Origin: Ignavibacteriota bacterium
GTDB taxonomy: Bacteria > Bacteroidota > Ignavibacteria > UBA10030 > CAVZMI01
Assembly: GCA_963776275.1 (NCBI GenBank)
Contig: CAVZMI010000029.1
Span: 29,355-93,354 of the forward strand
DNA: 64,000 nt
Direction of reading: 5' to 3'
Under the pieces are notes generated by a model, which worked only from the letters and a program-made list of their open reading frames with translations, did not search any database and was not told where the DNA came from. Position numbers and translations under genes: made by a program. Position 1 is the stretch's first letter. Every line of letters begins with the position of its first letter. Of this stretch, positions 18,211 through 59,892 are shown piece by piece.

Positions 18211-18512
18211 AATTCTATACCGTGTTGTTTTAGCGCGGTGAGTTTTGTGATGATGTCGCTGTTGTACCATTTCTCCCATGCTTTCTCGTCCATGGCCTTC
18301 ATCCGGATGTTGCCGTTTTCAATATATTGATTCAGAGGATTCAGTCGAACATAACGACAACGGCAATTTTTCACTACTAATCCATCTACCAAATAAGAAT
18401 GATCGTTGGCAACCTCTATGTTGTAAACAAGATTATTGTCTTCAAAACATTTGTTTTCTACTATCCTGAGAAGCTTATATTTACACTTTGGATTGAAATT
18501 GACCTTTTTCAT
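18207..18512 (-). CDS. MuF head morphogenesis protein, C-terminal fragment: C-intein plus C-extein
   Basis: 'VYNIEVANDHSYLVDGLVVKN/CRCRY' = intein blocks F/G then Cys+1; different frame from the N-part; candidate ATG 18512. Confidence 0.8.
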   Translation of the reverse strand: MKKVNFNPKCKYKLLRIVENKCFEDNNLVYNIEVANDHSYLVDGLVVKNCRCRYVRLNPLNQYIENGNIRMKAMDEKAWEKWYNSDIITKLTALKQHGIEL

Positions 18513-20352
18513 TACGGAGTTTTTCCCCTTTCTCTGAAGCATGCTCATCATCATGGCATTCGCGGCATAGTACTTCCAAATTGTCCATCTCATTATTATG
18601 TCGATCCCTATCTTTATGATGGACATGTAAACTAAATACTGAGCCACAACGTTCACATTCCTTTTTCTTTCCATAAATGCCAAAAGCATATTTCCGGTAT
18701 GATTTACGTCCGTCTTTAAATCTCGGTGCCTGAATTTTCACCTTCCCATAATTAGGATTCAAAGAGCCTATTTTTGAATCTGATATTTTTTTAATCGAAG
18801 GATTAGAACCTTTATTTTTACCGCTATTCCACGAAGGCTTGCCTTTTAACCATTGACCCCAAGAACCATCCTGCACCTTCTTTTTGATAGCGAGATGTGC
18901 TTTTTCAATTATTCGTTTTCTTTCTTCGGGATCTTTGTATCTCTCGTAGAGTGCTTCACTTTTATTTCTCCATTTCAAGCCGTAATTATTCATCCATCGT
19001 CTCACTGTGTCAGGACTCACGCCATATTGTTTTGACATTTGCAAAATTGACATGTGATGGATATTATGTTTCTCAGATAATTCTTCCGCGGTAGGTTTAT
19101 ATTTTGCTTCTAATTCAACAACCATATCGCCTGGAATAATTTCATCTATTTTCGCCCAATAAAATTTTTCATTCCGTTTTATTAATATTTCGTGTTTAGA
19201 GGTCGATTTTAATTCAATTCCATTATCCGTCGTGAGCCGATTAAACTTTCCAATATATTCACGCACATTCTTTCCAATTACTTTTTGATGCTTTCCTCGA
19301 TGCGTAAAAACTTCATCGCCCTCTTGGATATCTTTTATTTTCTTCCTCTCTCCATTTGATAGGCTAATTATTGCATCTCCATAAAAACAATATGGGTGAA
19401 GAGGTATGACAGGCATTGACAGTTCGTGATGTGCTCTTTGAACTAATCCCGGATTTCCGTTTTCATCGATTACTTTTTTATACGGTGATGAACTCCGGCC
19501 AATATTGTCCTTCCCCGTCCACACGACGTTAGTCCATAGCCATGATCGCCGTTGATATTCCTTGCTCTCTGGATCAAAGTTGCCATAAGTCATATCCTCG
19601 GCAGGCTCTATCACTGGAAATATTTTGCCATCAATAAGCCGACTACATTGTGGACAGCAATTGATCAGAGACATTCCTATTACCCAATCACTGGGTGGTA
19701 CCTGTGCCAGATATCCATTGTTGAAAGCAGCATTCGTTTCGGTGATCGCGACTCTCTTCCAATCCCTGTTCAGTTCGTGCTCATCATCAAAGAATTCTGT
19801 TTCCAATGCCCGTCGAAAATCCCGGACACTGCCACGATTCTTAAGATTATCATATAAGAGTTCTTGTATCCTACTCACGGTCCGACCGGTAGCGTTTGTC
19901 AAATTCTTCGCACCGTTCGAAACGCTCCATTCCAAAGCTTTTGTCTCGCGGACTGTTAGTTTGTAATCTCTTGCTGCATCCCGAATTCGTGCTGGAAGTT
20001 TTTCTATATCGAGTATTTTTCGAGGCGGTACTGGCGGAAGAGTCTCACTCTTCTCAATCAATTTGCCGATGATGAATCCCCTTACTAACCATGTCTCTAT
20101 CTCCGGCATTTTCCCATAAAAATATTTCCGGATGAATGAATCGATATCCTGAAGATCTTGAAGTGTGGGTATCGCACCCTCCTTCAATCTTCCTGCCAGA
20201 TATTTATTCAGCGATTCATAGAATTTCTCAATTTCGAAAGAAGAATGGAATTGCTTCTCAAGTATTCCTAATTCTTCAAGGTGTTGTATGCCTCCTGGCT
20301 GAGTTTGAAGCTTCTGGAATACATCTCTTGATATTTTAAGAGGTGCTGTCAT
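18481..20352 (-). CDS. MuF/SPP1-gp7-like head protein N-part plus N-intein plus HTH-HNH homing endonuclease
   Basis: 'RDWKRVAITE', 'CCPQC', 'PLHPY|CFYGDAII' (intein Cys1 at 19387-19389), 'STSKHEI' block B, 'HHKDRDRHNN..NLEVLCRECH' HNH. Confidence 0.88.
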   Translation of the reverse strand: MTAPLKISRDVFQKLQTQPGGIQHLEELGILEKQFHSSFEIEKFYESLNKYLAGRLKEGAIPTLQDLQDIDSFIRKYFYGKMPEIETWLVRGFIIGKLIEKSETLPPVPPRKILDIEKLPARIRDAARDYKLTVRETKALEWSVSNGAKNLTNATGRTVSRIQELLYDNLKNRGSVRDFRRALETEFFDDEHELNRDWKRVAITETNAAFNNGYLAQVPPSDWVIGMSLINCCPQCSRLIDGKIFPVIEPAEDMTYGNFDPESKEYQRRSWLWTNVVWTGKDNIGRSSSPYKKVIDENGNPGLVQRAHHELSMPVIPLHPYCFYGDAIISLSNGERKKIKDIQEGDEVFTHRGKHQKVIGKNVREYIGKFNRLTTDNGIELKSTSKHEILIKRNEKFYWAKIDEIIPGDMVVELEAKYKPTAEELSEKHNIHHMSILQMSKQYGVSPDTVRRWMNNYGLKWRNKSEALYERYKDPEERKRIIEKAHLAIKKKVQDGSWGQWLKGKPSWNSGKNKGSNPSIKKISDSKIGSLNPNYGKVKIQAPRFKDGRKSYRKYAFGIYGKKKECERCGSVFSLHVHHKDRDRHNNEMDNLEVLCRECHDDEHASEKGEKLRNEKGQFQSKV

Positions 20353-25972: not shown

Positions 25973-26000
25973 ATGGACGGCTCGCTGAATGGATAGACAT

Positions 26001-26030
26001 AAAAAAAGGCATACACTTTTTGTGCTGCCT
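26001..26030 (-). terminator. Intrinsic terminator
   Basis: AGGCAGCAC-AAAAA-GTGTATGCCT followed by T-run. Confidence 0.75.
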
Positions 26031-26111
26031 CATTCAGTTTGGTTCGTTTCCACCATTCACTATACGAACCGATTCCGTTTCGTCTATTGTTGTGTTATCT
26101 CTTCTGGTCTA

Positions 26112-26531
26112 TTATTCTCCGTTAGTGTTAGACTGTTTTACTTCACATTCTTTGTTACATAAAGTTGTACAAATATATGAAATCTGATCTCCCATGTCAA
26201 GTGGTTTTTTGTCTTTTATCACTTCACCTGTATAAATTCCACCCTCCTCTTTGATCAGCTGCTCCTTCTCCGGATCGAAGCCCGATTCGATCAGTTCCTT
26301 AAACAGCCGGCAATCAATCCTTTCCAGTTCCTCCTGCAACTTCTGGATGTTCTGGGGCGTCGGTTCGCATCCGAATTGTTCTAAAATCACCCTACATTTT
26401 CGAGGTCTATTCTTCAATTCTGCTGGCGCTCTCCAAGCAAGATATTTCGCAATCTGCGCCGCTCTTCTATGTCTTACTATCTGATCCATTCCCTCATCCT
26501 TCAAATGGTCAATAAAAGTAAATTCCCTCAA
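26112..26531 (-). CDS. Hypothetical protein
   Basis: 139 aa, co-oriented; start uncertain. Confidence 0.5.
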   Translation of the reverse strand: MREFTFIDHLKDEGMDQIVRHRRAAQIAKYLAWRAPAELKNRPRKCRVILEQFGCEPTPQNIQKLQEELERIDCRLFKELIESGFDPEKEQLIKEEGGIYTGEVIKDKKPLDMGDQISYICTTLCNKECEVKQSNTNGE

Positions 26532-26602
26532 TAATTGACGAATCTCTTTTTTTATTACCCAGCATACAACCGCCCTGGAATCTCCTGACTAACTCCATGT
26601 TA

Positions 26603-26842
26603 TCAAACCAGCACCATTGAAGAAGTAGACAGAACCCCTCCTGCCAACTTCCAACTCCCTTGCTCCCATGTAGGTATGAAACCGGCCGAGATTGCCTTCT
26701 GAATAATTAGATCCCTTTTCTCTTTCAAGATTCGCACCTCGAACTCGGCTTCAATCCCCGGTTTGAGATCATCGAGCACGATGTCTTTGATCTGATTATC
26801 GATGTGATTCAACTGGTTTTCTATTTCTCTCACCCTATCCAT
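26603..26842 (-). CDS. Small protein with its own promoter
   Basis: ATG 26842 with SD GGGGAG. Confidence 0.55.
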   Translation of the reverse strand: MDRVREIENQLNHIDNQIKDIVLDDLKPGIEAEFEVRILKEKRDLIIQKAISAGFIPTWEQGSWKLAGGVLSTSSMVLV

Positions 26843-26866
26843 TGGCTCCCCCTCTTGTGCCAATAG

Positions 26867-26895
26867 ATAATATCACATAATATGATAAATGTCAA
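26867..26895 (-). promoter_or_regulatory. Sigma70-type promoter
   Basis: TTGACA-N17-TATTAT. Confidence 0.75.
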
Positions 26896-27173
26896 GTATT
26901 ATCTGACATTAGTTTCGTTCTATCGAGAATATTAAATACCTCTTCATTAAGTGGAGATACCTCATCAAACGTAACAGTTCTCTTTTCGTTGTATTTTTCA
27001 TAGGACGGACAACCTGACCAGCCTTTGATGGTTAATCGCCGTTGCCCATTGGGTTTAGCAATTCCTCTCTCATCGGTAAACGAATAGTGCTCAATTTCAA
27101 ATACTATTGGTTTCTTTACTGTTGTCTGTCCTTCCTCTTGTATCTCCTCAATCGTTATTCGACATTTAGGCAT
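26892..27173 (-). CDS. Hypothetical protein
   Basis: 93 aa, SD GAGGAG. Confidence 0.55.
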   Translation of the reverse strand: MPKCRITIEEIQEEGQTTVKKPIVFEIEHYSFTDERGIAKPNGQRRLTIKGWSGCPSYEKYNEKRTVTFDEVSPLNEEVFNILDRTKLMSDNT

Positions 27174-27357
27174 TTTTCTTTTCCTCCTCGTACTTCTGAC
27201 ACATCCACATTCTCAGGTATGGCGATAGTTTAAGGTGTAAGCCTGCTGCCCTCTGTTCGAACTCCGTCACCATTTCCTCTGGTAGCCCTATCTGTACCAT
27301 TTGTAACTTCTTCCCTGCATCATCTTCCCCGGTCTTTTTACGCTGTTTGGTCGCCAT
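27166..27357 (-). CDS. Ribbon-helix-helix (CopG-like) DNA-binding protein
   Basis: 'MVQIGLPEEMVTEFEQRAAGLHLKLSPYLR' RHH pattern. Confidence 0.55.
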   Translation of the reverse strand: MATKQRKKTGEDDAGKKLQMVQIGLPEEMVTEFEQRAAGLHLKLSPYLRMWMCQKYEEEKKNA

Positions 27358-27547
27358 GGTTTATCTCTTCGTCTTTTATTAGTGGATTCGGTACAGTCCA
27401 TCTGTTTGAGTAATTTGGACATTGTAGCGTCACTGTATCATTATTGTTAATTGAAATCACTTCGCCTTCACCATCACATTCTAAACAATACTTCTCTTCA
27501 CCTAAATGCTCCAGAATATCACGTTGATTTATTGTACTTGTACTCAT
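27338..27547 (-). CDS. Small Cys-containing protein
   Basis: 'CLECDGEG' DnaJ-type Zn knuckle. Confidence 0.5.
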   Translation of the reverse strand: MSTSTINQRDILEHLGEEKYCLECDGEGEVISINNNDTVTLQCPNYSNRWTVPNPLIKDEEINHGDQTA

Positions 27548-27747
27548 TCGGATATTGACCTCTGAACTGTTGTTTCCATCGATTCATCGAGCTCAAACGT
27601 ATGTGTATTAATACAACCCATTCCTCCAATGTTTCTCTTTACTTTTTCTTCTTCTTTCTCGGTAGGTTTTGTGCTGAACATCCTCACACCTATTATATCG
27701 CACTCTGCACATGAAACGGCAACCGTCACCCATTTCTTTTCACTCAT
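27544..27747 (-). CDS. Hypothetical protein
   Basis: 67 aa, SD GGGGG, downstream of a promoter. Confidence 0.55.
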   Translation of the reverse strand: MSEKKWVTVAVSCAECDIIGVRMFSTKPTEKEEEKVKRNIGGMGCINTHTFELDESMETTVQRSISE

Positions 27748-27774
27748 TTCTCGATCCCCCGGTTATTGCTTTCC

Positions 27775-27803
27775 AATGTAAGACAATACAATATAATACT
27801 CAA
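27775..27803 (-). promoter_or_regulatory. Sigma70-type promoter
   Basis: TTGAGT-N17-TACATT. Confidence 0.55.
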
Positions 27804-27997
27804 GTCAAGTTATCAGCTCTTCCCGGGCTGCCTGCCGACGTGCAAGAATCTTGCTGAATTTCTGGTTTTCCTGCTCTGTTTCCTCAATCGCCGAGTTAAT
27901 GGCACTCACTACTCTCTCGATCAGGATCCCGGGTTCCTGTGTAGGGGCTTTTTGAATAGCACCTTCGGCCAGTAAGTATACACGGTTCTTATCCATA

Positions 27998-28240
27998 TTA
28001 TTCCTCTTGCTGCTTTCGACCCTGTTCTTCCCGTTCACGTTGTTGTCGTCTTATCTCACGCGCTGGTTCCTCTTGTGGAAGTTTCTCCCTATCCCTTGTG
28101 GAGAGTTTTTCCTTAATGGTTTTCATCCAAATCCTATATATCAATGATCCCGCCTTCCTTATAATACGGGCATCAATCTTCTTTTCTTCTCTATTTGTTA
28201 GTTCAATTCGTTCTATTATCGCATCCTTCTTCTTGTTCAT
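27998..28240 (-). CDS. Hypothetical protein
   Basis: 80 aa, SD GGAG. Confidence 0.5.
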   Translation of the reverse strand: MNKKKDAIIERIELTNREEKKIDARIIRKAGSLIYRIWMKTIKEKLSTRDREKLPQEEPAREIRRQQREREEQGRKQQEE

Positions 28241-28273
28241 GCTTTCTTCTCCACCTGCTCAACTTGACTCTTT

Positions 28274-28507
28274 TTATCTATGTGTTGATAACAATCTATA
28301 TTTTTGTGATAAGATGACCTTATCACTCTGGACTATTATCTCCATTGGTGAAAATTCAAGTACTGGAATTCCATTGCGTATAAAAATTCCTCGCCCATCT
28401 GGATATAAGAATAATAGGTCATCTCCTCTGAGATCTTTTGAGGTAAGAATATTTATACCAAAGATCATCATACTTTCTGTTCTATTTTCCCTTCTTAGGT
28501 TAACCAT
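28274..28507 (-). CDS. Hypothetical protein
   Basis: 77 aa, co-oriented. Confidence 0.45.
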   Translation of the reverse strand: MVNLRRENRTESMMIFGINILTSKDLRGDDLLFLYPDGRGIFIRNGIPVLEFSPMEIIVQSDKVILSQKYRLLSTHR

Positions 28508-29256
28508 ATCGGATCAGTCTCAACTTCCTTTTCGATCTCTCTTACAATTTGACAATCACCCAGTAGCGGTTCTCCGTCACTTCCGGTCCCGATCCTATTT
28601 CCCGATACCTCATATATTGGTCTCTGAAAACAACCTGATAACGTTACACAAGCTGACCCGGTATGACTTGGCATTATAACTCGCACCTTTCTCCCTCTCT
28701 CGATCGCTTCATACACCGATATTCCTTCTTCGTCTTTTTTGAAAAGATAGTTATGAGAACGACCGGATTCTGGTGGTAATCCAAATCGTATGTAAATTAT
28801 ATTACCGTTTGTCCCGTTTCGATTCCAATATTTGAATTCCAAGCTGCTCGCTATCTGATACAACTGTTTCGGTTCAATACGTTTATTGTGCAGCAATGGC
28901 GCCTTCTTCAATATATTCATGGATTTATAATCATTCTCTTCTTTTATTTCGATCAGTCCACAGTACTTGGGGACATCTGGGATTATGCCTGCTGGGGCCA
29001 CAAAAAAATATCTGTTCGGCCTTCTATTATCCACTGGGAAAACTTTCTCTCCCTGCAGCACTGAATGTTTCCACGCCTTCTGTTTGAATTCACGAAGATA
29101 GTCGGCCTTCGAAATCTTTATCTCAAATTCCCATACAATCAGATTGGGCCGTATAAGCAATAGATCTGCTTCCCATCCATAGAGTAAACTATTGGGTGTG
29201 ATGATCCCTGCTGATAGCCGGTTCCTGAGTATCTGTTGGATGTCAGCTTCCCTCAT
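28495..29256 (-). CDS. MmcB-like PD-(D/E)xK nuclease-fold protein fused to a second phage domain
   Basis: 'EADLLL..WEFEIKISKADY..PNRYFFVAP', then 'YIRFGLPPESGRSHN..EEGISVY'. Confidence 0.65.
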   Translation of the reverse strand: MREADIQQILRNRLSAGIITPNSLLYGWEADLLLIRPNLIVWEFEIKISKADYLREFKQKAWKHSVLQGEKVFPVDNRRPNRYFFVAPAGIIPDVPKYCGLIEIKEENDYKSMNILKKAPLLHNKRIEPKQLYQIASSLEFKYWNRNGTNGNIIYIRFGLPPESGRSHNYLFKKDEEGISVYEAIERGRKVRVIMPSHTGSACVTLSGCFQRPIYEVSGNRIGTGSDGEPLLGDCQIVREIEKEVETDPIWLT

Positions 29257-29564
29257 TCCTGATTTGTCCCCTCGATTATTATACTGTCTACAGTTCGAGT
29301 GGCTAATGCATCCAATGCCGCGTACAAACGTTCAATAGCCTTTCCAATATCCTCGCAGGCGAATTTTGATCTTTGGAAAAACTCGAGCCGATCGATGGCA
29401 GCTTCTATTACGTTCTCTACCAGTGCACCATTCGGCTCTTTCCAGTCTCCTCCGCGGCCGAGCGGACCATCTTGCCAAATGATGGCATATCCTGTCCCGT
29501 AAGTTAAACCTCCGGCCGGATTACCGGCTTCATCGATCCGATGTTCTGACTTCATCTTGTTCAT
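29253..29564 (-). CDS. Tad1/Acb2-like nucleotide-signal sponge (anti-defence)
   Basis: 'IWQDGP..PNGALVE.VI..AIDRLEFFQRSKFAC..AL.AL..RT..EGT' follows the Tad1 family pattern. Confidence 0.75.
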   Translation of the reverse strand: MNKMKSEHRIDEAGNPAGGLTYGTGYAIIWQDGPLGRGGDWKEPNGALVENVIEAAIDRLEFFQRSKFACEDIGKAIERLYAALDALATRTVDSIIIEGTNQE

Positions 29565-29686
29565 CTTTCTTTTTCCCTTTTTTCTTATCGAACGTGATAT
29601 CTCGCCATGGCCATGGATTACAGTGCCGATCCATATTCTCCCAAATCTTTTCTATTGTATATTCTTCCATAACTCCTTCTTAAATA

Positions 29687-29977
29687 TTAATTATCCTTTT
29701 TACCTATTTTAACAAGTTCGATACGATGTGCGAAGAAATCCACTTTAATAATTTTAGGGATAAGACGAACTATACAATATCGCTTCTTTCCTTCTTGTTG
29801 TGTTCTATCCATCCATCTAACACGATATTTTTTCCCATTGATTAACCAAAACCCTTTGTCATGAATATCTCTCTTACCTATGGAAAGTGGATCGTCAAAT
29901 TGAAATACAAGTTCATCTCCATCTTTCTTAAGTATCTCAAAGTTTTTCATACGCATTGCTTCGCGTATCCTTTCCAT
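29687..29977 (-). CDS. Hypothetical protein
   Basis: Likely start MERIRE with SD GAGGAG. Confidence 0.5.
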   Translation of the reverse strand: MERIREAMRMKNFEILKKDGDELVFQFDDPLSIGKRDIHDKGFWLINGKKYRVRWMDRTQQEGKKRYCIVRLIPKIIKVDFFAHRIELVKIGKKDN

Positions 29978-30251
29978 CACTCCTCCTCTGCTTTTACCGC
30001 CCACCCTTCGTTCATCCATTTCGAAGCTGCTTCATCTCCCATGATACCAAATAGATGCGAAACCAAACGATCCTGTAATTCCTGATAACCGATTGCATCT
30101 TCATCACCATAAAATAATTTCCGGAGAGTAAGTTTTATCAGCTCTTCACTCTCTTTACTGATCTCTGCATTCTTCTTATTGCACCATAGTGCCGCAGTAC
30201 GGACAGACTTTTATTGTCCCGTCACAAATGTGTTCTAACATGTTTCTGTTG

Positions 30252-30557
30252 TCATTTAACTTTTTTAAGAGGCTCACTCACTCTCGCTATAAAAAACTCT
30301 ACGCTGATTTTATTCTTGTTGAAAGTGCAATTTTCAACAAACACTTCTACTTTTTGGTTAATGCTTTTCGCGCTTGCTTTTAATGCGATAGACATATTTG
30401 TAATACTTTTCCCCAGTGTTTCTGCTCCTATATATCCACCGCCCTCTTTCAGTGTTATTGCCATATTCAATTTTTGTGTCTCTGGAATAATCGCCGTTGC
30501 TTCAACTTGTATTTCCTCTTTACACTTAGGACATTTCATCGTTCGTTCGCCTTTCAA
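30252..30557 (-). CDS. Cassette-borne small protein with CxxC
   Basis: 'MKCPKC'; stop codon lies within the cassette left-end repeat. Confidence 0.6.
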   Translation of the reverse strand: MKGERTMKCPKCKEEIQVEATAIIPETQKLNMAITLKEGGGYIGAETLGKSITNMSIALKASAKSINQKVEVFVENCTFNKNKISVEFFIARVSEPLKKVK

Positions 30558-30571
30558 ATTAGATTAAATGC

Positions 30572-30848
30572 AACAGAACCAAGCAATCAAACTGACCGAA
30601 TCAGTTAAGTGCAAAATTCATTGTCAAATGCAACACCGGTAATACCATAATATATCTCTCCGGCGTTCAATCGTTACCAACCAAATCATTTTATCTTCGT
30701 TGTCCAGTTTTACGGGATACCAAGCAAACCATCTATGCCAAGGTAATTCTTCTCTATATTTCCATTCCATAAATCCTCCGCGTTGCATTTGTTTGTTAAA
30801 ATTATTTTGAAAGTTTATCTATCGGCAGTTTAGTGCCATTCGTTATAT
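30572..30848 (+). other. attC-like recombination site with ~220-nt variable terminal structure
   Basis: AAC-5nt-AATCAAACTGACCGA ... TCGGCAGTTTAGT-7nt-GTTATAT with two unpaired bases (C, A on top strand) at canonical positions. Confidence 0.75.
30624..30770 (-). CDS. 48-aa Trp-rich phage protein inside the attC loop (absent from ORF track)
   Basis: SD GGAGG at 30775-30779; MEWKYREELPWHRWFAWYPVKLDNEDKMIWLVTIERRRDILWYYRCCI; WHRWFAWYPV is a recurrent small phage-protein motif. Confidence 0.75.
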   Translation of the reverse strand: MEWKYREELPWHRWFAWYPVKLDNEDKMIWLVTIERRRDILWYYRCCI

Positions 30849-31106
30849 CCCTTTCTTTTCTCTGGCTTGTCGGATTTTCTCTCCTTCTTCCCTGAGACTC
30901 ATTACGATCGCACCTTTTTTAACGGCTACAATTCGCTTATTTTCCGTCACATCATAGTGCGGCATGAATCGATGATCCTGAAACCAATTTATCTTTAATC
31001 CGATTGACTGTGCGAATTCATGCAATTCTTCTATGGTATCTGCTATAAGATGATACCAGATCTTTCCTCTCCACATAACTTTTTTACTACCAATGAATAC
31101 GCTCAT
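30843..31106 (-). CDS. DUF4031 family protein
   Basis: 'WYHLIADTIEELHEFAQSIGLK..WFQ...HYDVT..KR..AVKKGA'. Confidence 0.85.
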   Translation of the reverse strand: MSVFIGSKKVMWRGKIWYHLIADTIEELHEFAQSIGLKINWFQDHRFMPHYDVTENKRIVAVKKGAIVMSLREEGEKIRQAREKKGI

Positions 31107-31378
31107 TTCTTTTGTTTTGTATCAACGTATGTAGAAGAAATCCCCTTCGGATAGTCTCCATGTATGTGTGCCTTCTTTTCTATCTGTCTTATAAATAAAA
31201 ACAAAGTATCAATCCTCTTATTTATATGATCGATCCGCCACATTGCTAATCCACCAAAGAAAACGATCAGAGATATGCCAAATATGATAAAACCATTGGT
31301 CAAATCTTCAGCTATTATTACTTCGATCAGACCGATAATGACGCCGATCATTCCGATTAAAATGAAAATCGCTGGCAT
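31103..31378 (-). CDS. Small two-TM membrane protein
   Basis: Two hydrophobic helices. Confidence 0.6.
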   Translation of the reverse strand: MPAIFILIGMIGVIIGLIEVIIAEDLTNGFIIFGISLIVFFGGLAMWRIDHINKRIDTLFLFIRQIEKKAHIHGDYPKGISSTYVDTKQKK

Positions 31379-31679
31379 GTTCTTTTCTCCCCTGAATATG
31401 TGATTGTGAATTTATTCCTTGTTGATCCTTTCCCCGTACATTCAATCCCCCGATGAACCCCTCATTCTCATAAAACTTTTTCGATTTCGCTCTTACTACC
31501 AAATGCAGTACTTTTTTGAGCTGACTTATCTGAAGCCCACACTTATTTCGTTGCGTCGGGTTCAGTTGCTCCAATAGGTCGATCTCATACTCGATATTCC
31601 GGATGAGCCACTCGAATCGTCCGGAAATCAGATTGTACTCAACTTCTTTCCTCGAAAAATTTATTTCCTTGAAAGACAT
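31308..31679 (-). CDS. Hypothetical protein
   Basis: 123 aa, abuts the upstream stop. Confidence 0.5.
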   Translation of the reverse strand: MSFKEINFSRKEVEYNLISGRFEWLIRNIEYEIDLLEQLNPTQRNKCGLQISQLKKVLHLVVRAKSKKFYENEGFIGGLNVRGKDQQGINSQSHIQGRKEHASDFHFNRNDRRHYRSDRSNNS

Positions 31680-32072
31680 TTATGATAAATCCTTTATCGT
31701 TCTTACCAGATCCACCTGTACACGCTGCATCTCGATCAGATTCTTTGCCGTCTCATTGATCGCCTTGGCTTGATCGATGTATTTGGGGTCCTCCTGAATC
31801 TTCTTTATAGTATCCATGAGCGTTGTTCCCAAACCCTTCATTGGAAGATTGTCTTCCATGGCATTGTAAAGTGCCAGAGCATTTTTCTTATCCGGCCTCG
31901 GCTCTACAGGTAAAAATTCTCGCCGTAAGTCCTCACCATTGACTCGAATCACTCGCTTGTCCGTTGTAATTTTGAAAAGATTCCTCTCCTCCTGCTCGAT
32001 GCTCTGGATGATGTAATTAATTCCCTTGTAGAGATATGTACCACCGATCATTTTATAGAATGCCCTATTCAT
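31680..32072 (-). CDS. Phage protein usually adjacent to HNH genes
   Basis: 'YIDQAKAINETAKNLIE..VQVD' motif; ATGA-coupled. Confidence 0.55.
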   Translation of the reverse strand: MNRAFYKMIGGTYLYKGINYIIQSIEQEERNLFKITTDKRVIRVNGEDLRREFLPVEPRPDKKNALALYNAMEDNLPMKGLGTTLMDTIKKIQEDPKYIDQAKAINETAKNLIEMQRVQVDLVRTIKDLS

Positions 32073-32788
32073 GCCGATTCTTTTAATAATTGATTGAGTT
32101 GTAATTGCTTTCGTTTCGCATCCAGAAGATCTGGCTTTTTCAACAATCTCTCATAGAGCTTCTTATCATAACTGCCTTTACCACCTCTATTGCTGGCTAA
32201 ACATTTCGCGATAAATCCATCCGTCATCCTTGTATTGGCCGCGTGCTGTATATGTGTGATACATTCCAGATTGCTCGGTCTACAGTTCATCGTATTCCCA
32301 TCGCGAAATACTATGATGTGGTCTTTGGGTATACGACCATATGTTTTCTTCCAGACATAAACATGATACATGATCCATTTTGCTTTTTTGATCCGAATCC
32401 ATTTATATTCCCGGATCTTTCCCGTTTTTTTATCTGTGTCTATTCGTATCCTGATGCATCCATTGTATTTCGTGTTCGCCGGCTGGTGACCTTTCTTGAA
32501 CTCTGTTGCCCGACTGTAATGGACACCCTTACGACTCTTGTTCCATGTTTTATGTCCCTTTTGGAATTCCGTTGACGGAGATCTACGAACACCTTTTGTA
32601 AATTGACTCATATTAAACTTTTTCTTTATGCAGAGGAGATGCTGCATGCGATATATTGCTCTCGGGTGTCTCCCCAAGACAGCGGCAATTTCTGCCGCTG
32701 TCTTCTTACTGTGAAGATAGAGGTATCGAAATCTTTTTATTTCGGTTGCAGTCCATGGTCTCCTGAATCCCGGTGGTCTCTTCTTCAT
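32069..32788 (-). CDS. HNH endonuclease with NUMOD3-like repeats
   Basis: 'TEFQKGH..WNK', 'TEFKKGHQPAN', 'HVYVW..IVFRDGN.MNC..NLECIT'. Confidence 0.85.
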   Translation of the reverse strand: MKKRPPGFRRPWTATEIKRFRYLYLHSKKTAAEIAAVLGRHPRAIYRMQHLLCIKKKFNMSQFTKGVRRSPSTEFQKGHKTWNKSRKGVHYSRATEFKKGHQPANTKYNGCIRIRIDTDKKTGKIREYKWIRIKKAKWIMYHVYVWKKTYGRIPKDHIIVFRDGNTMNCRPSNLECITHIQHAANTRMTDGFIAKCLASNRGGKGSYDKKLYERLLKKPDLLDAKRKQLQLNQLLKESA

Positions 32789-32879
32789 TTCTTCGCTTTC
32801 TTCAATACATCATGCCGAATAAACGCCTGCAGGGAACTGTGCTCCTCCAGGCGCTGACGGTCATTCGTTGATGGTGCGG

Positions 32880-33137
32880 TTAACCGATGTGGGCAACCTG
32901 GTTTGAAGGATTATCCTGTATATAAGCCTCCAATTTCGCCGGATCCGTGAATACAAAGATCGACGTAAGATCAAAAGGCTCGCCCATATCCGGAAATACC
33001 TTCACATTGACAGTTGCCTGTCCTTCATTGATTGGAGTCCATACATACGTCACGATAGCTGGTTGCTCGTCGTGACCGTTGAAGTTGACTCCTTTGACGG
33101 TAACGATTGTACCGCATTTGATTGATTCCTCGCCCAT
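32880..33137 (-). CDS. Conserved small phage protein
   Basis: 'PAIVTYVW...VNVKVF' recurrent phage motif. Confidence 0.6.
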   Translation of the reverse strand: MGEESIKCGTIVTVKGVNFNGHDEQPAIVTYVWTPINEGQATVNVKVFPDMGEPFDLTSIFVFTDPAKLEAYIQDNPSNQVAHIG

Positions 33138-33198
33138 AGCTTATCCTTTCTTTTCTGAGTTATTGGAATCCGATCCGTTATTCGGTTCGGTATAATAA

Positions 33199-34699
33199 TC
33201 ACTTCTTCTTTGTGGGTTTACTCTTCCGCGCCGGCTTTTTCGTAACGACCTTTTTCTTCTTCGCAGTAAGCGCTAAACGGATCTTGCCTACGTCAATTCT
33301 CTTCTCCTTTGCTACTTTGAGAAGATTGTTGAAATCTCCTATTTCACAACATCCCACATTCAGAGCCTCGGTATAAATCACCATGATCATCGTCTTTCTC
33401 TTATTCTCCTTATAATGCTTCATGAGGGCTTTACGGTAATCACGGCCGCCATATTTTGCTTTCGGCGCTTCTATCCCGATCGCATCGCACATCCGCTTGG
33501 CTGAGTCGAAACTCAGTGCATCGACCATATGCTCACCGATCGCATCGAGCATGGTCTGATCGATTTTGAGATTTGAATCATAAACCGCTTTGAAAATTGC
33601 ATTCCGGACTTTTAACTCCTGTAGAGTTTTCTTTCTCTCTGCAGCCTGCTTCTTCCGCCAACCTCCATCATCACTGCTGCGTTGAAATGGCCGGCAAGTT
33701 TTGCATTTGGAATCGGTGCATATTCTCTTTAAATGCCCGATACCATCTCCTTCGACGATGAGTCCGGTTATTGCATTTTCGCAACCCTTTAATGGATTGC
33801 GATATCCTGAAGCCTCGATCACTCCCTTGCCTCTACTGGAATAATTCGTCGAGATCTCGACGAATATTTCATTGCGGCGCTTGAGCTCTTCGCGCTTGAT
33901 ATCCCAGATAGGCTCCCATCTTCGCATGGTAGCATGGGGCATCGAGACAGCGATCGTTTTTCGAGTCTCCAAAAAGGTCCGGATCGGCGCCAGTACGCTT
34001 TGGACAAACGGCACAGGCCACGGATTCTACTTTCGTTTTGAACTCACCTTTCTTTGACCATGGGGCAGCCGACAGCGAAAGCATGATATTATTTTCGATC
34101 CATCTGGCGAGTTCCCGTTCATCACTGATATAATCATCGAAACATGCTTTCAATGTGGTCTTTTGATCCCTTTCATTAAGCGGAGCAATCAACATAGCTT
34201 GACCGAGATTGATTTTTTGGGATCGTAATGCGTTCTTTCCCGAATCGATCAATGAGTTCAATTTCATGCGTTTTGCAACATAAGATTTCTGTTTCCCGAT
34301 CTGGCCGGCGATTTTTTCAATGGTGATGCCTTTGGATAACTTCATGAGTTTGGCATATTCCGCGGCCTCATCGAGCGGATCCAAACCCTCCCGCTGAGTA
34401 TTGTCGATCAGTGAATATTCAACAGCTTCCTCATCGTTCATTACTTTCACGATTGCCGGCATCTCAGTCAATCCGCAGCGTTGCGCAGCCATGAAACGGC
34501 GCTGTCCGGTTATGATCTCGAAGATATCTTCTCCATTTTTCGCCGGACGCACTGTGATTGGATGCTGTATTCCTTTCGCCTCTATTGAGGCTGTCAATTC
34601 CAACAATTTTACTTCATCGATTTCCTTCCGACCATTCAGCGGTGAGATCGAGAGCTTACTGATTGGAATCATTGCGATTTGAGGTGTGGTAGCAATCAT
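33199..34699 (-). pseudogene. ParB/Srx-domain protein, split by a +1 frameshift (possibly a sequencing error)
   Basis: 'ELTASIEAKGIQHPITVRP..ITGQRRF..NTQRE'; removing one base at 33903-33905 joins 'AYL-DIKREELK' into one ~500-aa ORF. Confidence 0.75.
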
Positions 34700-34722
34700 G
34701 GATGTTTCTCCTTTTCTTCTTT

Positions 34723-36483
34723 TTATTGAAATAGTGTTTTTGTCGCACAAATTGAGCCAGAATCATCTTCGATGAGTCGGCGACCTTTTAATCTCGCAAG
34801 ATAAGTATCCCTACTTGATCTCTTGTATGTGGTTAAATCACTGATTTCATCTCTTGTTAGAGAGTTTGGATATCTCTTTATGAGCAACTCGAAAATTGTT
34901 CTTTCGCCAGGAGGCAGTTTATGCAACCAATGTTCTATAAGTTTTTCGCCTGATGGAAGAGGTTCAAAATTATTTCCAAGAGCGGTCAATCCTTCATTTG
35001 TTACAACTATTCTTGCACCCGTTTTGACATAACCTCTCGTTGCTAATCGAGCGATGTAAGTATCACGACTTGATCTCCGATATTTAGCTATGACACTGAT
35101 TTCATCTCTCGTCAAACCATCATCATATTGAGCGACAGAATTCAGAATCATGGCTTCACCAGGAGGAAGCTTTACTACTTCGCTGTCACCTGAGTCCGAC
35201 ATCTTATTTTGCTTAGAATAATCAAATTTCCTCTCCATATTTTTGTGTAGGATTTCACCTCCTGTTGGGGCTTTTTGTATTTTATAGATTGGAACCTTAA
35301 TGGGCTCTGGTAATACAGCCGTTGAGCTGGCCAGCATTTCAGCAGCTTTTTTCATCTTCTCATTCTGTTTGATAATGATATTTTCAAGCGATCGCATCCT
35401 CGCATTCGATTCACGTTGTACTTCCTGTTTTGCTTTCTCAACCGCACGTCCAATTATCGATTCATCTACCTTTTGTGGAACAAGAGAATCGACATTGGCA
35501 ATCTGGATCTGAAGCTTATGTTCAAGTTCTCGAACTCTTTTTTTGAGCTCTATGGGATCGTTTTCTTTCGCTCTTTCGATAGTCGAGGCCATTTGTCTCC
35601 GAAGAGCATTAAGGTCGATTTCTGCAGGTTTTTTGGGCTCAATTCTTTTCTCTCCGGGCTTTGGCGTAGCACCTGAATCGAATGTTTCGATCGGCAATAC
35701 ATGAACTCTTTGAAATATACCTTCCGCTTCAGGCCAACCTGGAGACCAGAACCATGCGTCACCAATGGGCAACGAAGGTAATGACTCCATAAGAGTTTTC
35801 TGCTGTTCAATCGTTCCATGAACGTCAATCCAAGCCTTCATAGCATCGAGGTCTTGCGGAGCTATTGTACGCAGTGCGATAAGAATCTGTACCTGTGTCA
35901 GTACGTTCTTATTTAGCACCGCCGCTCTCTGTGTTACAAGAATACATCCAATACCACGCTGTCCGCCTCGACGCACTATATCCTCGGCAGCACCGAGCAT
36001 CCGTTCCTCTCCCTTCTGTGGTTTCTGGGGAGCAATGGCATCGGCTTCGTCAATAACAAGCATCATTGGAGTTCGATATATTTCCTTCGCCTTCAATCGA
36101 TATAGGTTTTCTAAGAATGCTGTCATGAATGTTGCGACTTCGTGCTTTCTGAAAAGCGAGAGGTCGATCAGAATGCTTACCCTTTCTTCAACAACGAGTT
36201 TTGCCACAATTTCACCGGAATTCACTTCCAAAGGTACGTCTGCTCGTTCCCCGCCAAGAATAATAATCGGATAGCCGGGCGATTTCCCATCCGAGGCAGA
36301 TCGAATTCCCCACTGATCCCCCTTGGGATCAACAAGTACGACTTGTTGACCGATCTTCAAGAGTTGCTCTGCCATCCGTCGCATTGTGTAACTTTTCCCT
36401 GCTCTACGCTTTGCAAGTAGACCGAAGGTCTGCGTAACACTTTCAATCGGCAATGATAATTCTTTTGATATGTGTAGTTTCAT
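34723..36483 (-). CDS. HerA/DUF87-like ATPase with two C-terminal winged-helix repeats
   Basis: Walker A 'AKRRAGKS', Walker B 'VIDEAD', 'VTQR'; duplicated 'LPPGE..LTRDEIS..SSRDTY.ARL'. Confidence 0.8.
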   Translation of the reverse strand: MKLHISKELSLPIESVTQTFGLLAKRRAGKSYTMRRMAEQLLKIGQQVVLVDPKGDQWGIRSASDGKSPGYPIIILGGERADVPLEVNSGEIVAKLVVEERVSILIDLSLFRKHEVATFMTAFLENLYRLKAKEIYRTPMMLVIDEADAIAPQKPQKGEERMLGAAEDIVRRGGQRGIGCILVTQRAAVLNKNVLTQVQILIALRTIAPQDLDAMKAWIDVHGTIEQQKTLMESLPSLPIGDAWFWSPGWPEAEGIFQRVHVLPIETFDSGATPKPGEKRIEPKKPAEIDLNALRRQMASTIERAKENDPIELKKRVRELEHKLQIQIANVDSLVPQKVDESIIGRAVEKAKQEVQRESNARMRSLENIIIKQNEKMKKAAEMLASSTAVLPEPIKVPIYKIQKAPTGGEILHKNMERKFDYSKQNKMSDSGDSEVVKLPPGEAMILNSVAQYDDGLTRDEISVIAKYRRSSRDTYIARLATRGYVKTGARIVVTNEGLTALGNNFEPLPSGEKLIEHWLHKLPPGERTIFELLIKRYPNSLTRDEISDLTTYKRSSRDTYLARLKGRRLIEDDSGSICATKTLFQ

Positions 36484-46990: not shown

Positions 46991-47759
46991 TTTTCACCGT
47001 TAAAAATAGTCTTGTGAATTGTTTCCGTAATGCTGACACCGAGAGAATATTTATTTTCCAAAATGGATCATGTTGACAAAATTCGATTATTATTCTTATC
47101 TCATTTGGATTGCGTTTGTCAAGGCGTATTAGCCTATCCATTTCCATTGCCCATTCTTCAAAATTTGGTCTTTTCACTTTGGGATCGTTTTTAAGCATTC
47201 TCGCGTATAGGAGTCTTGATAATTTCATCGGAGGTAATTCTTTTGGGAATCGTTCCGACGCTCTTTTTCTTTTGTCCTTGTCCTTGTCCTTGTCCTTGTC
47301 CTTGTCCTTAACCCCTTCTATGCCCTCAATTTGATCTCTATTTGAGATCAAATTGGAGTCAAGTTGACCTCCATTTGAGGTCAAGTTGAGGTCAAGTTGA
47401 GTTCTTAAATAGGGTGTTGGATCAATCCCATTTTGAATAAGTAAATTGATTGCTGAATTATGCATCCGATTCTTATCGTTCAAAATTCCACCGTATTGGA
47501 ACTCTATGAATCCCGTTAAAAACCACCTCCCATTATCCAGAACCTTTATTCGTTCTTTGTCCACATTAACTGTTTCAATAAACTCTTGAAGATTGACTTT
47601 CGCCCCAATCAATCTGTTAAATGTCGTACTATTCGGCCGCCATATTCCCGCATGATCACATGTATCTTTTATGAATCCCCATAGGAGTTTGTAATTCTTT
47701 GACAATCCAATAAACCAGTCTTCTTTCCATATTTCTGTATCTGTGTATCTTTTTGCCAT
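46875..47759 (-). CDS. Phage replication initiator
   Basis: 'KRYTDTEIWKEDWF..CDHAGIW', KD-repeat linker, C-terminal 'DPFWKINILS..LRKQF'. Confidence 0.8.
   Translation of the reverse strand: MAKRYTDTEIWKEDWFIGLSKNYKLLWGFIKDTCDHAGIWRPNSTTFNRLIGAKVNLQEFIETVNVDKERIKVLDNGRWFLTGFIEFQYGGILNDKNRMHNSAINLLIQNGIDPTPYLRTQLDLNLTSNGGQLDSNLISNRDQIEGIEGVKDKDKDKDKDKDKRKRASERFPKELPPMKLSRLLYARMLKNDPKVKRPNFEEWAMEMDRLIRLDKRNPNEIRIIIEFCQHDPFWKINILSVSALRKQFTRLFLTVKNGKHSRSNQEGRSARAGGSTTNEDARRTFEQTPVRRRE
47272..47307. repeat. (TTGTCC)6 microsatellite encoding a KD linker
   Basis: Six exact hexamers. Confidence 0.95.
47331..47403. repeat. Iteron-like repeats (putative phage origin)
   Basis: TTGAGGTCAAG-like unit repeated ~4 times inside the initiator gene. 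Confidence 0.6.
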
Positions 47760-49502: not shown

Positions 49503-49913
49503 TCAAAATGGAAGGTCTGATTCGTTTTGAACTGTACCAGTTGCAGCTGCTGATGATTGGTTTTCCGCAGCTTCGCTCGACGATGTTTGCCTTGGAGCTC
49601 CATCGAGCATGATTAAACTCTCAGCCAAGATTTCAGTGATATAACGTTTCACACCATTTTTATCGTCGTAGCTTCGTGTTTGAATCCGTCCTTCGATATA
49701 AACTCTTTTCCCCTTCTTCAGCCACTCGCCGCATATTTCTGCAAGTTTTCTCCAGGCAACAATATTGTGCCACTCGGTGCGTTCCTGCAGATTTCCATCC
49801 TGATCCTTCCAGCTCTCGCTTGTCGCGATGGCAACTCCGCTTGTGGTATATCGGAGCTCAGGGTCCTTCCCGAGATTTCCGATGAGCATCGCTTTATTCA
49901 GACTTTTCGCCAT
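49503..49913 (-). CDS. ssb: Single-stranded DNA-binding protein
   Basis: '[19 protein letters not shown]', 'TEWHNIVAW', 'EGRIQTRSY', tail 'DLPF'. Confidence 0.95.
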
Positions 49914-50874
49914 CTGAAGTCTCCGATGATGTGACGGTTGTGGTTTCAGTAAATATTCTCTTACTCACGTATCTCAGCGCGTCGCCGTTATGCTTCACCG
50001 CCTCCAGACATACCTCAACCGTCTGTTCCTTCACGTATCTCAGCGCGTAGCCGTCCCGACGCACCGCCTCCAGACATACCTCAACCGTCTGTTCCTTCAC
50101 GTATCTCAGCGCGTCGCCGTTATGCTTCACCGCCTCCAGACATACCTCAACCGTCTGTTCCTTCACGTACTGAAGCGCGTAGCCGTCCTGACGCACCGCC
50201 TCCAGACATACCTCAACCGTCTGTTCCTTCACGTACTGAAGCGCGTCGCCGTTATGCTTCACCGCCTCCAGACATACCTCAACCGTCTGTTCCTTCACGT
50301 ACTGAAGCGCGTCGCCGTCCCGACGCACCGCCTCCAGACATACCTCAACCGTCTGTTCCTTCACGTATCTCAGCGCGTAGCCGTCCTGACGCACCGCCTC
50401 CAGACATACCTCAACCGTCTGTTCCTTCACGTACTGAAGCGCGTCGCCGTCCTGACGCACCGCCTCCAGACATACCTCAACCGTCTGTTCCTTCACGTAT
50501 CTCAGCGCGTAGCCGTTATGCTTCACCGCCTCCAGACATACCTCAACCGTCTGTTCCTTCACGTACTGAAGCGCGTCGCCGTTATGCTTCACCGCCTCCA
50601 GACATACCTCAACCGTCTGTTCCTTCACGTACTGAAGCGCGTCGCCGTTATGCTTCACCGCCTCCAGACATACCTCAACCGTCTGTTCCTTCACGTACTG
50701 AAGCGCGTCGCCGTCCTGACGCACCGCCTCCAGACATACCTCAACCGTCTGTTCCTTCACGTACTGAAGCGCGTCGCCGTCCTGACGCACCGCCTCCAGA
50801 GCTTTTTCGCCTATTAGTTCGATGATTTCTGATTCTCGGCGATTGATCGATACCAAAAATAACTTGAGATCCAT
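49894..50874 (-). CDS. DUF4116-like 22-aa tandem repeat protein
   Basis: 13 units of VEVCLEAV(RQD/KHN/RRD)G(D/Y)AL(Q/R)YVKEQT. Confidence 0.85.
49965..50800. repeat. 66-bp tandem repeat, ~12.7 copies
   Basis: 42-bp invariant block plus 24 bp containing three variable sub-blocks. Confidence 0.97.
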
Positions 50875-58564: not shown

Positions 58565-58813
58565 ATGCCCTTCGTCAAATGTGAAAAGTGTGGACGATAC
58601 TACAGTATAGCTGAATCGAAATGTCCTCAATGCGGGAATGAGACTCCATCCAATGTCGTACCTTTCACTCCTCCAGATCCTACATTTGAATCTGAGATCA
58701 TCAAGGATAAGCATATCGGGTTCGGTCTATCATTCCAAATCCGGAAGGAAGAACGGCATCCGCGTCATCCGATCGATCAACAACCAAAAGACGACAAAAA
58801 AGAATCTGAATAA
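58565..58813 (+). CDS. Small zinc-ribbon protein
   Basis: 'CEKCG...CPQCG'; coupled to the integrase. Confidence 0.6.
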   Translation: MPFVKCEKCGRYYSIAESKCPQCGNETPSNVVPFTPPDPTFESEIIKDKHIGFGLSFQIRKEERHPRHPIDQQPKDDKKESE

Positions 58814-59892
58814 TGGCATCAATCTGGGTTCGTGGCAATAAGAATAGAGTTTACATAAAGTATAAAAATGCCGATGGCATCGAGCATCAAAAGCCAACTC
58901 CTTTTTGCCTCGAAAAAATCACAAAAAGAGATGGCAAAATCATCTATCCGCCCGAGGTCGTCCAATTCAAAAAGAAAATTGAAGCACAGATCCGACTTGG
59001 TCTCTGGGAATTGGTCCCTCAGCTCGTAAAAAAAATAAAGATATCTCAGGCGATCGATGAGTTTCTGCTAACATATGGCGCCAATTTAAAGCCTCGGACT
59101 CAAAAGCTCTATCGGCTTGCCGCGAAGAAATTGATATCGGTGATCGATGACTGTTATCTTTCATCAATCAATGAATCAAAAATGATAGAATTCCGTAATT
59201 CATTGCTGAAAGAGTACAATGAACAAACCGCGGCTATGTTCATGCGGAATGTATCACCGCTGATTACTTGGGGGGTGCGCGAAGGCTATATACAAAATTC
59301 ACCAGTTTCTAAACAGACCAGAATGAATCCGGCCATCCCACCCCCTATTATTTACTCTGACGAGGAACTCGATAAAATAATTGCCCACCTGAAAAAGAAT
59401 AATAAATCGCTCGCCAATCAGCTTATTTTCCTCCTGTTGACCGGTTTCCGGGCCGGTGAGTCCTGTTCCCTCACCTGGGACCGGATAGACCAAGAGAAGG
59501 GCATCATAAGGCACTACAACGAGAAAGAAAGCCGCTGGGATCACTATCCCATGGATCGAGCGCTTCTTAAGCTATTCTTCCACCTTCCACACGCTGATGA
59601 TCCTTACGTATTCAAATATAGAGATCCCTCCACATTGCATCATTACCTTCGAAAACACCTTGATTTACTGCAGATTTCTAAGAAAAAGATTGTTCATGCC
59701 CTTAAAAAAACCTATGTTTCCCGAATCATTGAATCCGGAGCATCTGAAGCCGAAGCGCATAGCCTGAGTCATCATAAATCATTTCAGACAACCCTGCGTT
59801 ATTATACTTTCTTTAAACTCGATAATAAACGGGCAGTTTTAGAACGAAGTAGGAGGAAAAGAAAGAAGATAGCCAAAGGGGCAAATCGATGA
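58813..59892 (+). CDS. int: Tyrosine integrase
   Basis: 'LLTGFRAGE', 'HALKKT', 'SHHKS..TTLRYY'; adjacent to the tRNA. Confidence 0.92.
   Translation: MASIWVRGNKNRVYIKYKNADGIEHQKPTPFCLEKITKRDGKIIYPPEVVQFKKKIEAQIRLGLWELVPQLVKKIKISQAIDEFLLTYGANLKPRTQKLYRLAAKKLISVIDDCYLSSINESKMIEFRNSLLKEYNEQTAAMFMRNVSPLITWGVREGYIQNSPVSKQTRMNPAIPPPIIYSDEELDKIIAHLKKNNKSLANQLIFLLLTGFRAGESCSLTWDRIDQEKGIIRHYNEKESRWDHYPMDRALLKLFFHLPHADDPYVFKYRDPSTLHHYLRKHLDLLQISKKKIVHALKKTYVSRIIESGASEAEAHSLSHHKSFQTTLRYYTFFKLDNKRAVLERSRRKRKKIAKGANR

Follow-up and report, generated by a model that had tools for sequence, protein, structure and literature searches.

Integron gene cassettes are usually regarded as bacterial cargo, and the question raised by the locus described here is whether one of them stands by itself in the genome of a temperate phage, with a complete gene enclosed in the loop of its recombination site (attC). 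The locus lies in a stretch of 64,000 nucleotides (nt) of Ignavibacteriota DNA, hereafter the window, which is G000:C29:29355-93354 of the host assembly G000 (3.70 Mb, 38 contigs, completeness 96.4%, contamination 5.3%). The contig is that of a temperate phage present as a prophage. Genes for the major head protein, portal, terminase and helicases, and a tyrosine integrase gene (58813-59892), are found in the window, and tail genes occupy the 29 kb of the contig to the left of it. Between two phage genes, at 30243-30842, lies a 600-bp segment with a gene termed p95 in its body and a second one, p48, near its right end. This segment is very probably an integron gene cassette with a true attC, alone in the phage genome. 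The original prediction for this DNA had proposed such a cassette, and the sequence features that it listed are all present, none of them more than 1 nt from where it had placed them.

The region 28495-31400 was compared by blastn with 277 genomes of the host's order. Matches to the part from 30566 to 30622, which comprises the R''-spacer-L'' arm of the site, were obtained in three genomes of a single other genus (G047, G111 and G112), each of which has several copies; the identity is 77-82% over 45-56 nt. The loci concerned hold arrays of 150-196-nt elements, all running in one direction. At its 5' side the element reads (G/A)CCTAAC, CAGGC, 3 nt, C, AAGCTG, A and CGG, and at its 3' side CCG, CAGCTT, AGC, GCC, 5 nt and GTTAGGC. 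The reference set drawn from nine loci comprises 46 sites of 80-196 nt, with a single orientation per contig. Alignment of 40 of them showed no variation in the AAC and GTT triplets or in the two unpaired bases; most of the 7-nt boxes read (G/A)CCTAAC and GTTAGGC. A consensus structure of 20 pairs was obtained with RNAalifold; six pairs carry compensatory changes (16, 16, 7 and 15 sequences at four pairs, 1 and 2 at the others). The same three genomes encode an integron integrase (IntI) scoring 427.7-454.3 bits, the cut-off of TIGR02249 being 265, and in locus L203 about 1.6 kb separate intI from the start of an array that lies on the other strand, the classic arrangement of an integron. Given the invariant triplets and unpaired bases, the compensatory pairs, the IntI and the array layout, these repeats are genuine attC sites with long loops.

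A covariance model of 157 positions and 20 pairs, R1, was built from the 40 reference sites, the window being excluded. On the 64-kb window R1 gave a single match, at 30573-30848 on the top strand, covering the full length of the model (positions 1-157) with 36.3 bits and an E-value of 2.3e-9; the E-values of R1 are rough owing to a shortened calibration, which leaves the bit-score gap unaffected. With the filters off, a search of the 9 kb from 26000 to 35000 returned the site at 36.4 bits and a runner-up at 9.8 bits. The controls were clean. At 56 phage loci with p48 homologues (543,697 nt) no match was obtained at E<=1, and 100 loci related by their terminase (1,106,776 nt) yielded one match of 12.7 bits. 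Integrons are common within the order. R1-type sites at E<=1e-6 were found in 74 of 151 sampled genomes, and an IntI above the cut-off in 98 of all 277; these include G002, from the one other genus of the host's family (484.5 bits).

The site is 276 nt long and begins with R'' ACAGAAC (30573-30579), which is followed by CAAGC and then by AATCAAACTGACCGA up to 30599; the L'' arm spans 30582-30598. After the loop, or variable terminal structure (VTS), of 222 nt (30600-30821), the 3' arm consists of TCGGCAGTTTAGT (30822-30834), GCCATTC and GTTATAT, with L' at 30823-30837, the spacer at 30838-30841 and R' GTTATAT at 30842-30848. Of the 20 model pairs, 17 are standard. The pairs at model positions 3, 13 and 19 differ from the consensus on both sides and keep their pairing; likewise the stem between the unpaired bases is AAACTG/CAGTTT where the family has AAGCTG/CAGCTT, a double-sided change. 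The unpaired bases C30588 and A30595 (G and T on the bottom strand) flank a 6-bp stem, 30589-30594 with 30826-30831, and occupy columns that are invariant and unpaired in the 40 reference sites. Extrahelical G and T on the bottom strand with this 6-bp spacing have been described for attC sites (PMC5027507). The triplets AAC (30577-30579) and GTT (30842-30844) fall on the invariant triplet columns of the reference alignment. Of the four degenerate positions in the 7-nt consensus RYYYAAC/GTTRRRY, R' fits three and R'' two; the triplet alone is given as conserved across all attC sites (PMC5027507), and R' after its G is target DNA. Homology to the reference sites does not end with the arms and also takes in about 23 nt of the loop at its left end and about 33 nt at its right end. 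These results support the identification of 30573-30848 as an attC site homologous, in sequence and in structure, to the integron attC family of the host's order, as had been predicted.

The boundaries of the cassette were examined next to those of its relatives. The right crossover falls inside R', between G30842 and T30843. On the left, 30242-30259 is complementary to 30564-30579, the extended stem arm that ends in R'', with 16 matches and two 1-nt indels; a gapped alignment widens this pair to 30241-30273 and 30549-30581, which bracket p95. The same rule holds in 38 reference cassettes, in each of which the 5' end is complementary to the R'' arm of that cassette; the median stretch is 14 contiguous bp and the range 5-17. 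Such complementarity is what circularising cassettes should show. Because of it, the left crossover is placed between G30242 and T30243, and this exact boundary is our inference; G30242 would then belong to the phage target, and the cassette would start at T30243 (G^TT), its positions 30243-30259 being the remainder of R' and the extended stem arm. A G^TT thus stands at both ends, as the original prediction had it. The cassette is seated exactly between the TAA stop codon of a phage gene with domain DUF4031 and the C-ATG of the next phage gene. Were it absent, the two flanking genes would lie as close together as their neighbours do. Its GC content is 0.362, that of the flanks 0.407 and 0.412. 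The target core G^TT fits 5'-GWT-3' and lies in a short palindrome that carries AAC and GTT on each strand, and neither flanking gene is damaged at the junction.

The gene in the loop, p48, is encoded on the minus strand at 30624-30770 (48 aa, or 54 aa from an upstream ATG at 30788), and a GGAGG (30775-30779) stands 4 nt before its ATG. The loop measures 222 nt because this complete gene is contained in it, and in the R1 alignment the p48 stretch is treated as a loop insertion. An inner inverted repeat lies about the gene: on the top strand its left arm CAAATGCAAC (30625-30634), a further copy of the distal portion of the extended R'' arm, pairs perfectly over 10 bp with its right arm GTTGCATTTG (30782-30791). 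Judged by its homologues, p48 is a real gene of a widespread family of small phage proteins. As a query it matched 112 cluster representatives at E<=1e-3 (its own cluster included), homologues occur in 56 IMG/VR phage loci, and a core F-A-W-x-P within W-x-x-W-F-A-W-Y-P-V is invariant. The claim that a whole gene sits inside the attC loop thus holds. Nothing credible was found in Pfam at E<=1 for the p48 family, for p95 or for the frame opposite to p95; a match to VCH_CASS14 by one of 76 p48 family members (E 0.045) was taken as noise.

The association of p48 with an attC is confined to this locus in the material searched. An attC of this family was found at none of the 56 other loci with p48 homologues. 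A flanking inverted repeat reached p<=0.05 at four of these 56 (p = 0.12 for the p48 of the window), and no conserved enclosing hairpin was seen among them. Neither did the 46 reference sites or the host sites offer a comparable loop; the longest sites are 196 nt (reference) and 220 nt (host). A variant that differs from the 54-aa form by two substitutions, R to K and C to R, is recorded on two contigs at JGI, the longest of 9,228 nt, and on one of 1,475 nt at ENA. For the DUF4031 protein, p95, p96, p253 and p130, clustering at 90% identity gave no mates. Since the variant is recorded elsewhere and the neighbours have no such mates, p48 seems to occur apart from the rest of the locus. No homologue of p48 or p95 was present in the host arrays or in the nine reference array loci. 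The cluster records offer a lead towards a further, rather improbable reading, in which the attC arms with p48 in their loop would make up a working minimal cassette by which a phage gene is moved between phages and arrays through integrases. The broader proposal of the original prediction, that the phage gains or swaps accessory genes by means of such attC hairpins, found no support beyond this locus, with one attC in the window and none of this family at the other p48 loci.

As for the origin of the cassette, the most likely course is the following. An integron integrase would have bound the folded bottom strand of the attC in a free circular cassette and would have recombined this attC with a G^TT site in the double-stranded phage DNA, the route known for 'attG' or secondary sites. 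One hybrid junction per side would result, on the left phage G30242 with cassette TT(T)CTGT, and on the right cassette G30842 with phage TTATAT. Insertion driven by IntI at 5'-GWT-3' sites of genomes ('attG') has been reported, and isolated cassettes of this kind were named 'SALIN', for single attC sites lacking an integrase (bioRxiv 10.1101/2022.09.11.507474). Both the insertion event at the present locus and the enzyme are inferred.

Several results weigh against reading the segment as an inserted cassette of this kind. They concern the divergence of the site, the host that has no integrase, the repeats when they are taken singly, the strand of the cargo, the rough E-values of R1 and the missing empty site; the insertion itself is read from the anatomy of the locus.

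The site departs from its family in a number of ways. R'' ACAGAAC differs from the consensus RYYYAAC, three of the model pairs are broken, and the extended R stem contains two 1-nt bulges. Its score of 36 bits compares with 150-175 bits for good, intact family members. The 222-nt loop exceeds the 20-100 nt published for the VTS (PMC4889954), and the 276-nt attC with its coding loop exceeds the usual 57-141 bp; that range is typical and not defining, and the reference family itself measures 150-196 nt. These departures bear on a second account, according to which the cassette was captured as proposed and its attC no longer works, p48 having entered the loop later or having replaced its middle by phage recombination, which fixed the cassette with its mismatches. 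This account differs from the favoured one solely in present activity and in the order of events, and its probability falls only a little short of one half. Besides the broken pairs, the low score, the bulges and the length of the loop, it draws support from the host, which is without intI and in which many attCs are truncated or decayed, and from the p48 family, which is without this attC at all of the 56 loci. In replicative conditions, long loops are reported to lower recombination by as much as 4 logs; with single-strand delivery, however, recombination rates were similar whatever the length of the loop (PMC8946536). Also against loss of function, both triplets, both extrahelical bases and 17 of the 20 pairs are kept, some of the pairs by double-sided changes, and the loops of the family tolerate other insertions, such as the 38-nt GC-rich hairpin inserted in some reference sites of 193-194 nt. 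Whether the site in the window still recombines is evenly balanced on this evidence.

A separate feature of the reference loops may be recorded here. In most of them (alignment columns ~133-200, loci L198-L206) a conserved ATG or GTG stands before AACT. The top-strand frame that begins there has about 21 codons, passes through L' and ends at a TAG inside R' (GTTAGG).

The host genome contains attC sites and no integrase. The host assembly gave 19 R1 matches at E<=1, of which the strong ones are C23:148816-149012 (109 bits), C30:4353-4502 (97 bits) and C4:2985-3137 (78 bits). They cluster in one direction on C30 (141-11821), C4 (20-3137) and C23 (334214-339684), with further sites at 148816 and 297711 of C23. 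The cargo of the host cassettes consists of large genes of ordinary kinds, for glycoside hydrolases, a protein with a beta-lactamase fold and proteins with type IX secretion sorting domains. No match to an Rfam family was obtained in the host array loci. In the sites at C30:141, C30:4353, C30:6458 and C4:2985 homology ends at one shared point of the 3' arm, beyond which all four run on in a common GC-rich sequence. No intI or fragment of it was found in the window, as predicted, or in the host assembly, and the genus mate G001 is likewise without IntI. The best host match to TIGR02249 reached 137.6 bits against the cut-off of 265 and lacks model positions 182-234, and tblastn of the host with the IntI of G002 returned only matches of 35-36% identity which lack the same middle part; these are read as Xer-like recombinases. 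The host integron integrase that the original prediction had invoked was therefore not found above the cut-off, and the enzyme that placed the cassette is absent from the present host assembly. No R1-type site was seen in the 20 kb beside the intI of G002, where the contig ends 160 nt past the gene.

The host clusters on C30, C4 and C23, without an integrase, invite a third account, in which the phage took up a piece of a chromosomal array during lysogeny by illegitimate or short-homology recombination and the G^TT boundaries are coincidental. Routes of this kind were raised by Qi et al. for phage-borne attC clusters (PMC9892861), and the target is palindromic, with AAC and GTT on both strands. 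This account is nevertheless improbable. The segment has exactly the length of one cassette, its left end complements its own R'' as in the 38 reference cassettes, its right end lies at the canonical G^TT of R', and the flanking genes are undamaged at the junction. The host arrays and the nine reference array loci hold no homologue of p95 or p48. Integrase-driven insertion is thus preferred over this route.

When the repeats of the locus are taken singly, they remain within the range of shuffled sequences. AAATGCAAC has three copies in 64 kb, all within 225 nt, and 51 of 200 dinucleotide shuffles contained a 9-mer with three occurrences inside 250 nt. A 16-mer of the locus is single-copy at up to three mismatches. 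The repeat 30241-30273/30549-30581 is the best in the window at a distance of 40-800 nt, with a score of 31, which was reached in 9 of 30 shuffles. The L stem has a score of 18, which is equalled or exceeded by 613 pairs in the window; for the inner 10-bp stem (score 20) there are 225 real pairs against a shuffle mean of 194. Folding of the DNA of 30560-30860, a check suggested with the original prediction, gave z = -0.70 and -0.62 for the two strands. A hand-made scan for AAC, a spacer, 3 bp, C, 6 bp, A, 4 bp, a loop of at most 400 nt and a mirror arm ending in GTT returned the site and three equally scoring places in the host genome (mean 0.83 in 12 simulated genomes). One of these places, G000:C5:115654-116006, is a long near-perfect inverted repeat which encloses about 300 nt and is hit on both strands, an element of a different kind.

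These single-repeat shuffle results, the folding z of about -0.7 and the three other scan hits are what would be expected if the hairpin were a chance look-alike, or a repeat acting at the RNA level or in regulation, in an ordinary moron region of the phage. The spacers contain no sigma-70-like promoters or terminators on the coding strand, which would also suit such a region. Even so, this explanation is hardly credible. The site as a whole is far beyond chance, with the R1 match of E 2.3e-9 at the exact interval that had been predicted and clean controls; it is 77-82% identical over 45-56 nt to the arms of real attCs, the homology continues into both ends of the loop, and the three copies of the motif are all at the locus. 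No Rfam family was found above noise in 29500-31500. Around p95 a long-range pairing of the mRNA is present as a stem in both the minimum free energy and the centroid structure (z -1.05); it was set aside as an explanation in view of the low z, and such pairing may exist as a side effect.

Other mobile or regulatory elements were considered and set aside. A miniature inverted-repeat transposable element or mobile insertion cassette with terminal inverted repeats was rejected, as there is no target duplication and the 11-mer TTAAATGCAAC has only two copies in the genome. An invertible segment, operator or 'stoperator' sites and a promoter early stem-loop (PeSL) were rejected because the motif is not repeated elsewhere in the phage.

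The cargo strand was considered at p95, a 95-aa ORFan with an N-terminal CPKC motif at 30252-30539 on the minus strand, that is, the bottom strand of the attC. No homologue of it was found, nor a match to a Pfam or PHROG family. On the top strand a rival frame is open from 30214 to 30567 through the body of the cassette, with its stop 6 nt before R''. The codon score is 0.157 for p95 and -0.02 to 0.10 for the opposite-strand frame, and Atlas recognition 2101 for p95 and 1226 for the other. Both lean towards p95 as the coding frame, the likelier cargo gene, and are not decisive; the coding strand of the cassette body is assigned from them. In all of the 38 reference cassettes the longest open reading frame (ORF) is on the top strand, opposite to p95, and of nine host intervals it is on the top strand in seven and on the bottom strand in one, the remaining one having no ORF. 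As the original prediction had stated, then, the cargo would be oriented opposite to that of normal cassettes, to the extent that the leaning strand call allows. Lying on the bottom strand of the attC, p95 therefore reads with the phage operon, as does p48.

Close relatives of the phage, in which an empty site might be seen, were sought in several ways. A blastn search against 50,697 phage records gave none. Queries with the DUF4031 protein and p253 returned nothing from viral contigs, metagenome contigs or genome contigs. The terminase query yielded 31, 6 and 80 loci with 44-59% full-length identity; none of the terminase-related loci carries p48, p95, the zinc-ribbon gene, p96, p103 or p253, and DUF4031 is present in four of them, which represent two distinct places. 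Being too distant, these loci could not be used for comparison with an empty site, and the searches made found neither a close relative nor an empty site.

Compared with known systems, the locus resembles most closely the SALINs. There, likewise, one cassette with one attC and no integrase nearby stands outside arrays, between genes, at a G^WT core (bioRxiv 10.1101/2022.09.11.507474). The anatomy found here is the same, a single attC with a G^WT core and no intI or second attC nearby. The differences are that the recipient is a phage and not a bacterial chromosome, that the attC measures 276 nt with a gene in its loop, that the likelier cargo is on the bottom strand, and that the insertion is deduced. 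An attC cluster that lacks an integrase (CALIN) comprises two or more clustered attCs without intI, and the window holds one; a complete integron has intI and an attI adjoining the cassette, a combination that was not found. The locus is classed as a cassette of the SALIN type that lies in a prophage, has a coding attC loop and carries inverted cargo.

Integrons and attC clusters borne by phages were first reported in 2023, in 21 phages and as clusters, and some of their attCs recombine with IntI1 (PMC9892861). In both cases integron sites and cassettes are found on phages, which offers them a route of travel, whereas at the present locus homology revealed a single site, which belongs to a long family. 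With the attCs of sedentary chromosomal integrons that have a long VTS, the site shares R boxes, L boxes, the triplets, the extrahelical G and T 6 bp apart, the unpaired spacer and the likeness of sites within a lineage (PMC5027507, PMC4889954). The lengths differ, those published in these sources being 57-141 bp for the attC and 20-100 nt for the VTS, against 150-196 nt in the reference family and 276 nt, with a coding loop, in the window.

Insertion sequences (IS) and group IIC-attC introns have been found within attC sites, where they occupy the bottom strand (PMC3001079), and they share with p48 a bottom-strand coding insert opposite to the cassette genes. Unlike them, p48 has no features of an intron or transposase and lies in the terminal loop, and 29500-31500 has no Rfam match. 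In the PeSL cassettes of the hyperplastic regions of T4-type phages, small ORFans in a variable region are bounded by stem-loop motifs for which shuffling has been proposed (PMC2839356, PMC4122927). The PeSLs are promoter-terminator motifs repeated many times per genome; AAATGCAAC, in contrast, has its three copies at one locus, and the site is homologous to attC. Neither a small non-mobile gene in an attC loop nor an attC as long as the present one was found in the literature covered, by a search that was literal and incomplete; of inserts within attC sites it yielded only IS and group IIC-attC introns, and the longest attCs named there are of 141 bp (PMC5027507) and, from Treponema, 132 bp.

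A single cassette, cleanly placed, in a lineage in which about a third of the genomes carry the integrase suggests that integrase-driven insertion at G^TT may be one route by which phages gain small accessory genes. The site also extends the form of the attC to 276 nt with a whole gene in its loop. If the site still recombines, the terminal loop would be usable coding space and searches limited by size would under-count such sites; if the gene-in-loop cassette is real, attC finders limited in length would miss it. There is a warning as to method as well, in that shuffles of single repeats read as chance and comparison with the attC family of the lineage alone revealed the site.

The genes around the cassette are all on the minus strand, in the order DUF4031 gene, p48, p95 and a split downstream gene. 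The DUF4031 gene (30843-31106; Pfam PF13223, E 3.7e-21; phrog_4887) has its TAA stop at 30843-30845, abutting the right junction. On the minus strand, spacers of 72 nt and 84 nt separate the DUF4031 gene from p48 and p48 from p95, and they are conspicuous because the adjoining phage genes, unlike those of the cassette, abut or overlap. The ATG of the next phage gene (30241) stands 10 nt beyond the end of p95. This gene (29980-30241) is split: from the ATG a zinc-ribbon-like frame of 21 codons runs to a stop at 30176-30178, and the +1 frame is open from 30210 to 29980, without a start codon and with a TGATG overlap with the gene that follows. It may be frameshifted, possibly through decay after the insertion, or a pseudogene, or the split may reflect an assembly error. 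For the +1 frame (29980-30210) no homologue was found. The original prediction had argued that removal of the cassette returns a ribosome-binding site to this orphaned start. Some weight is lent to the argument by the frequency of Shine-Dalgarno-like 4-mers, which stand before 41 of the 85 long ORFs of the phage and before 601 of the 1,766 host ORFs, as compared with 535 of 5,000 positions taken at random; it is suggestive only, because the downstream gene is itself broken by the frameshift.

Several other features of the phage were noted. Two genes encode HNH endonucleases, one at 32069-32788 on the minus strand, 1.2 kb upstream of the cassette, and one at 18481-20352, also on the minus strand, where the HNH domain is C-terminal in a 623-aa protein. 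A transposase gene (phrog_506, E 1.5e-105) sits between the tail module and the head module at G000:C29:28250-29389 and runs into the start of the window; it is on the plus strand, whereas the structural genes of the phage are on the other. The large terminase (34723-36483, minus strand) is mosaic. Many of its relatives match the first ~320 residues only, with 73-84% identity (partial-match loci include L027, L031, L036, L041, L049 and L075), and the full-length relatives are 44-59% identical. A palindromic 9-mer, TCAACTTGA, occurs in three copies within 43 nt at 47357-47399. Finally, a tandem array with a 66-nt period, equivalent to 22-codon repeats, was observed at 49960-50660, where a 326-aa ORF (49894-50874, minus strand) and a 275-aa ORF (49990-50817, plus strand) overlap.

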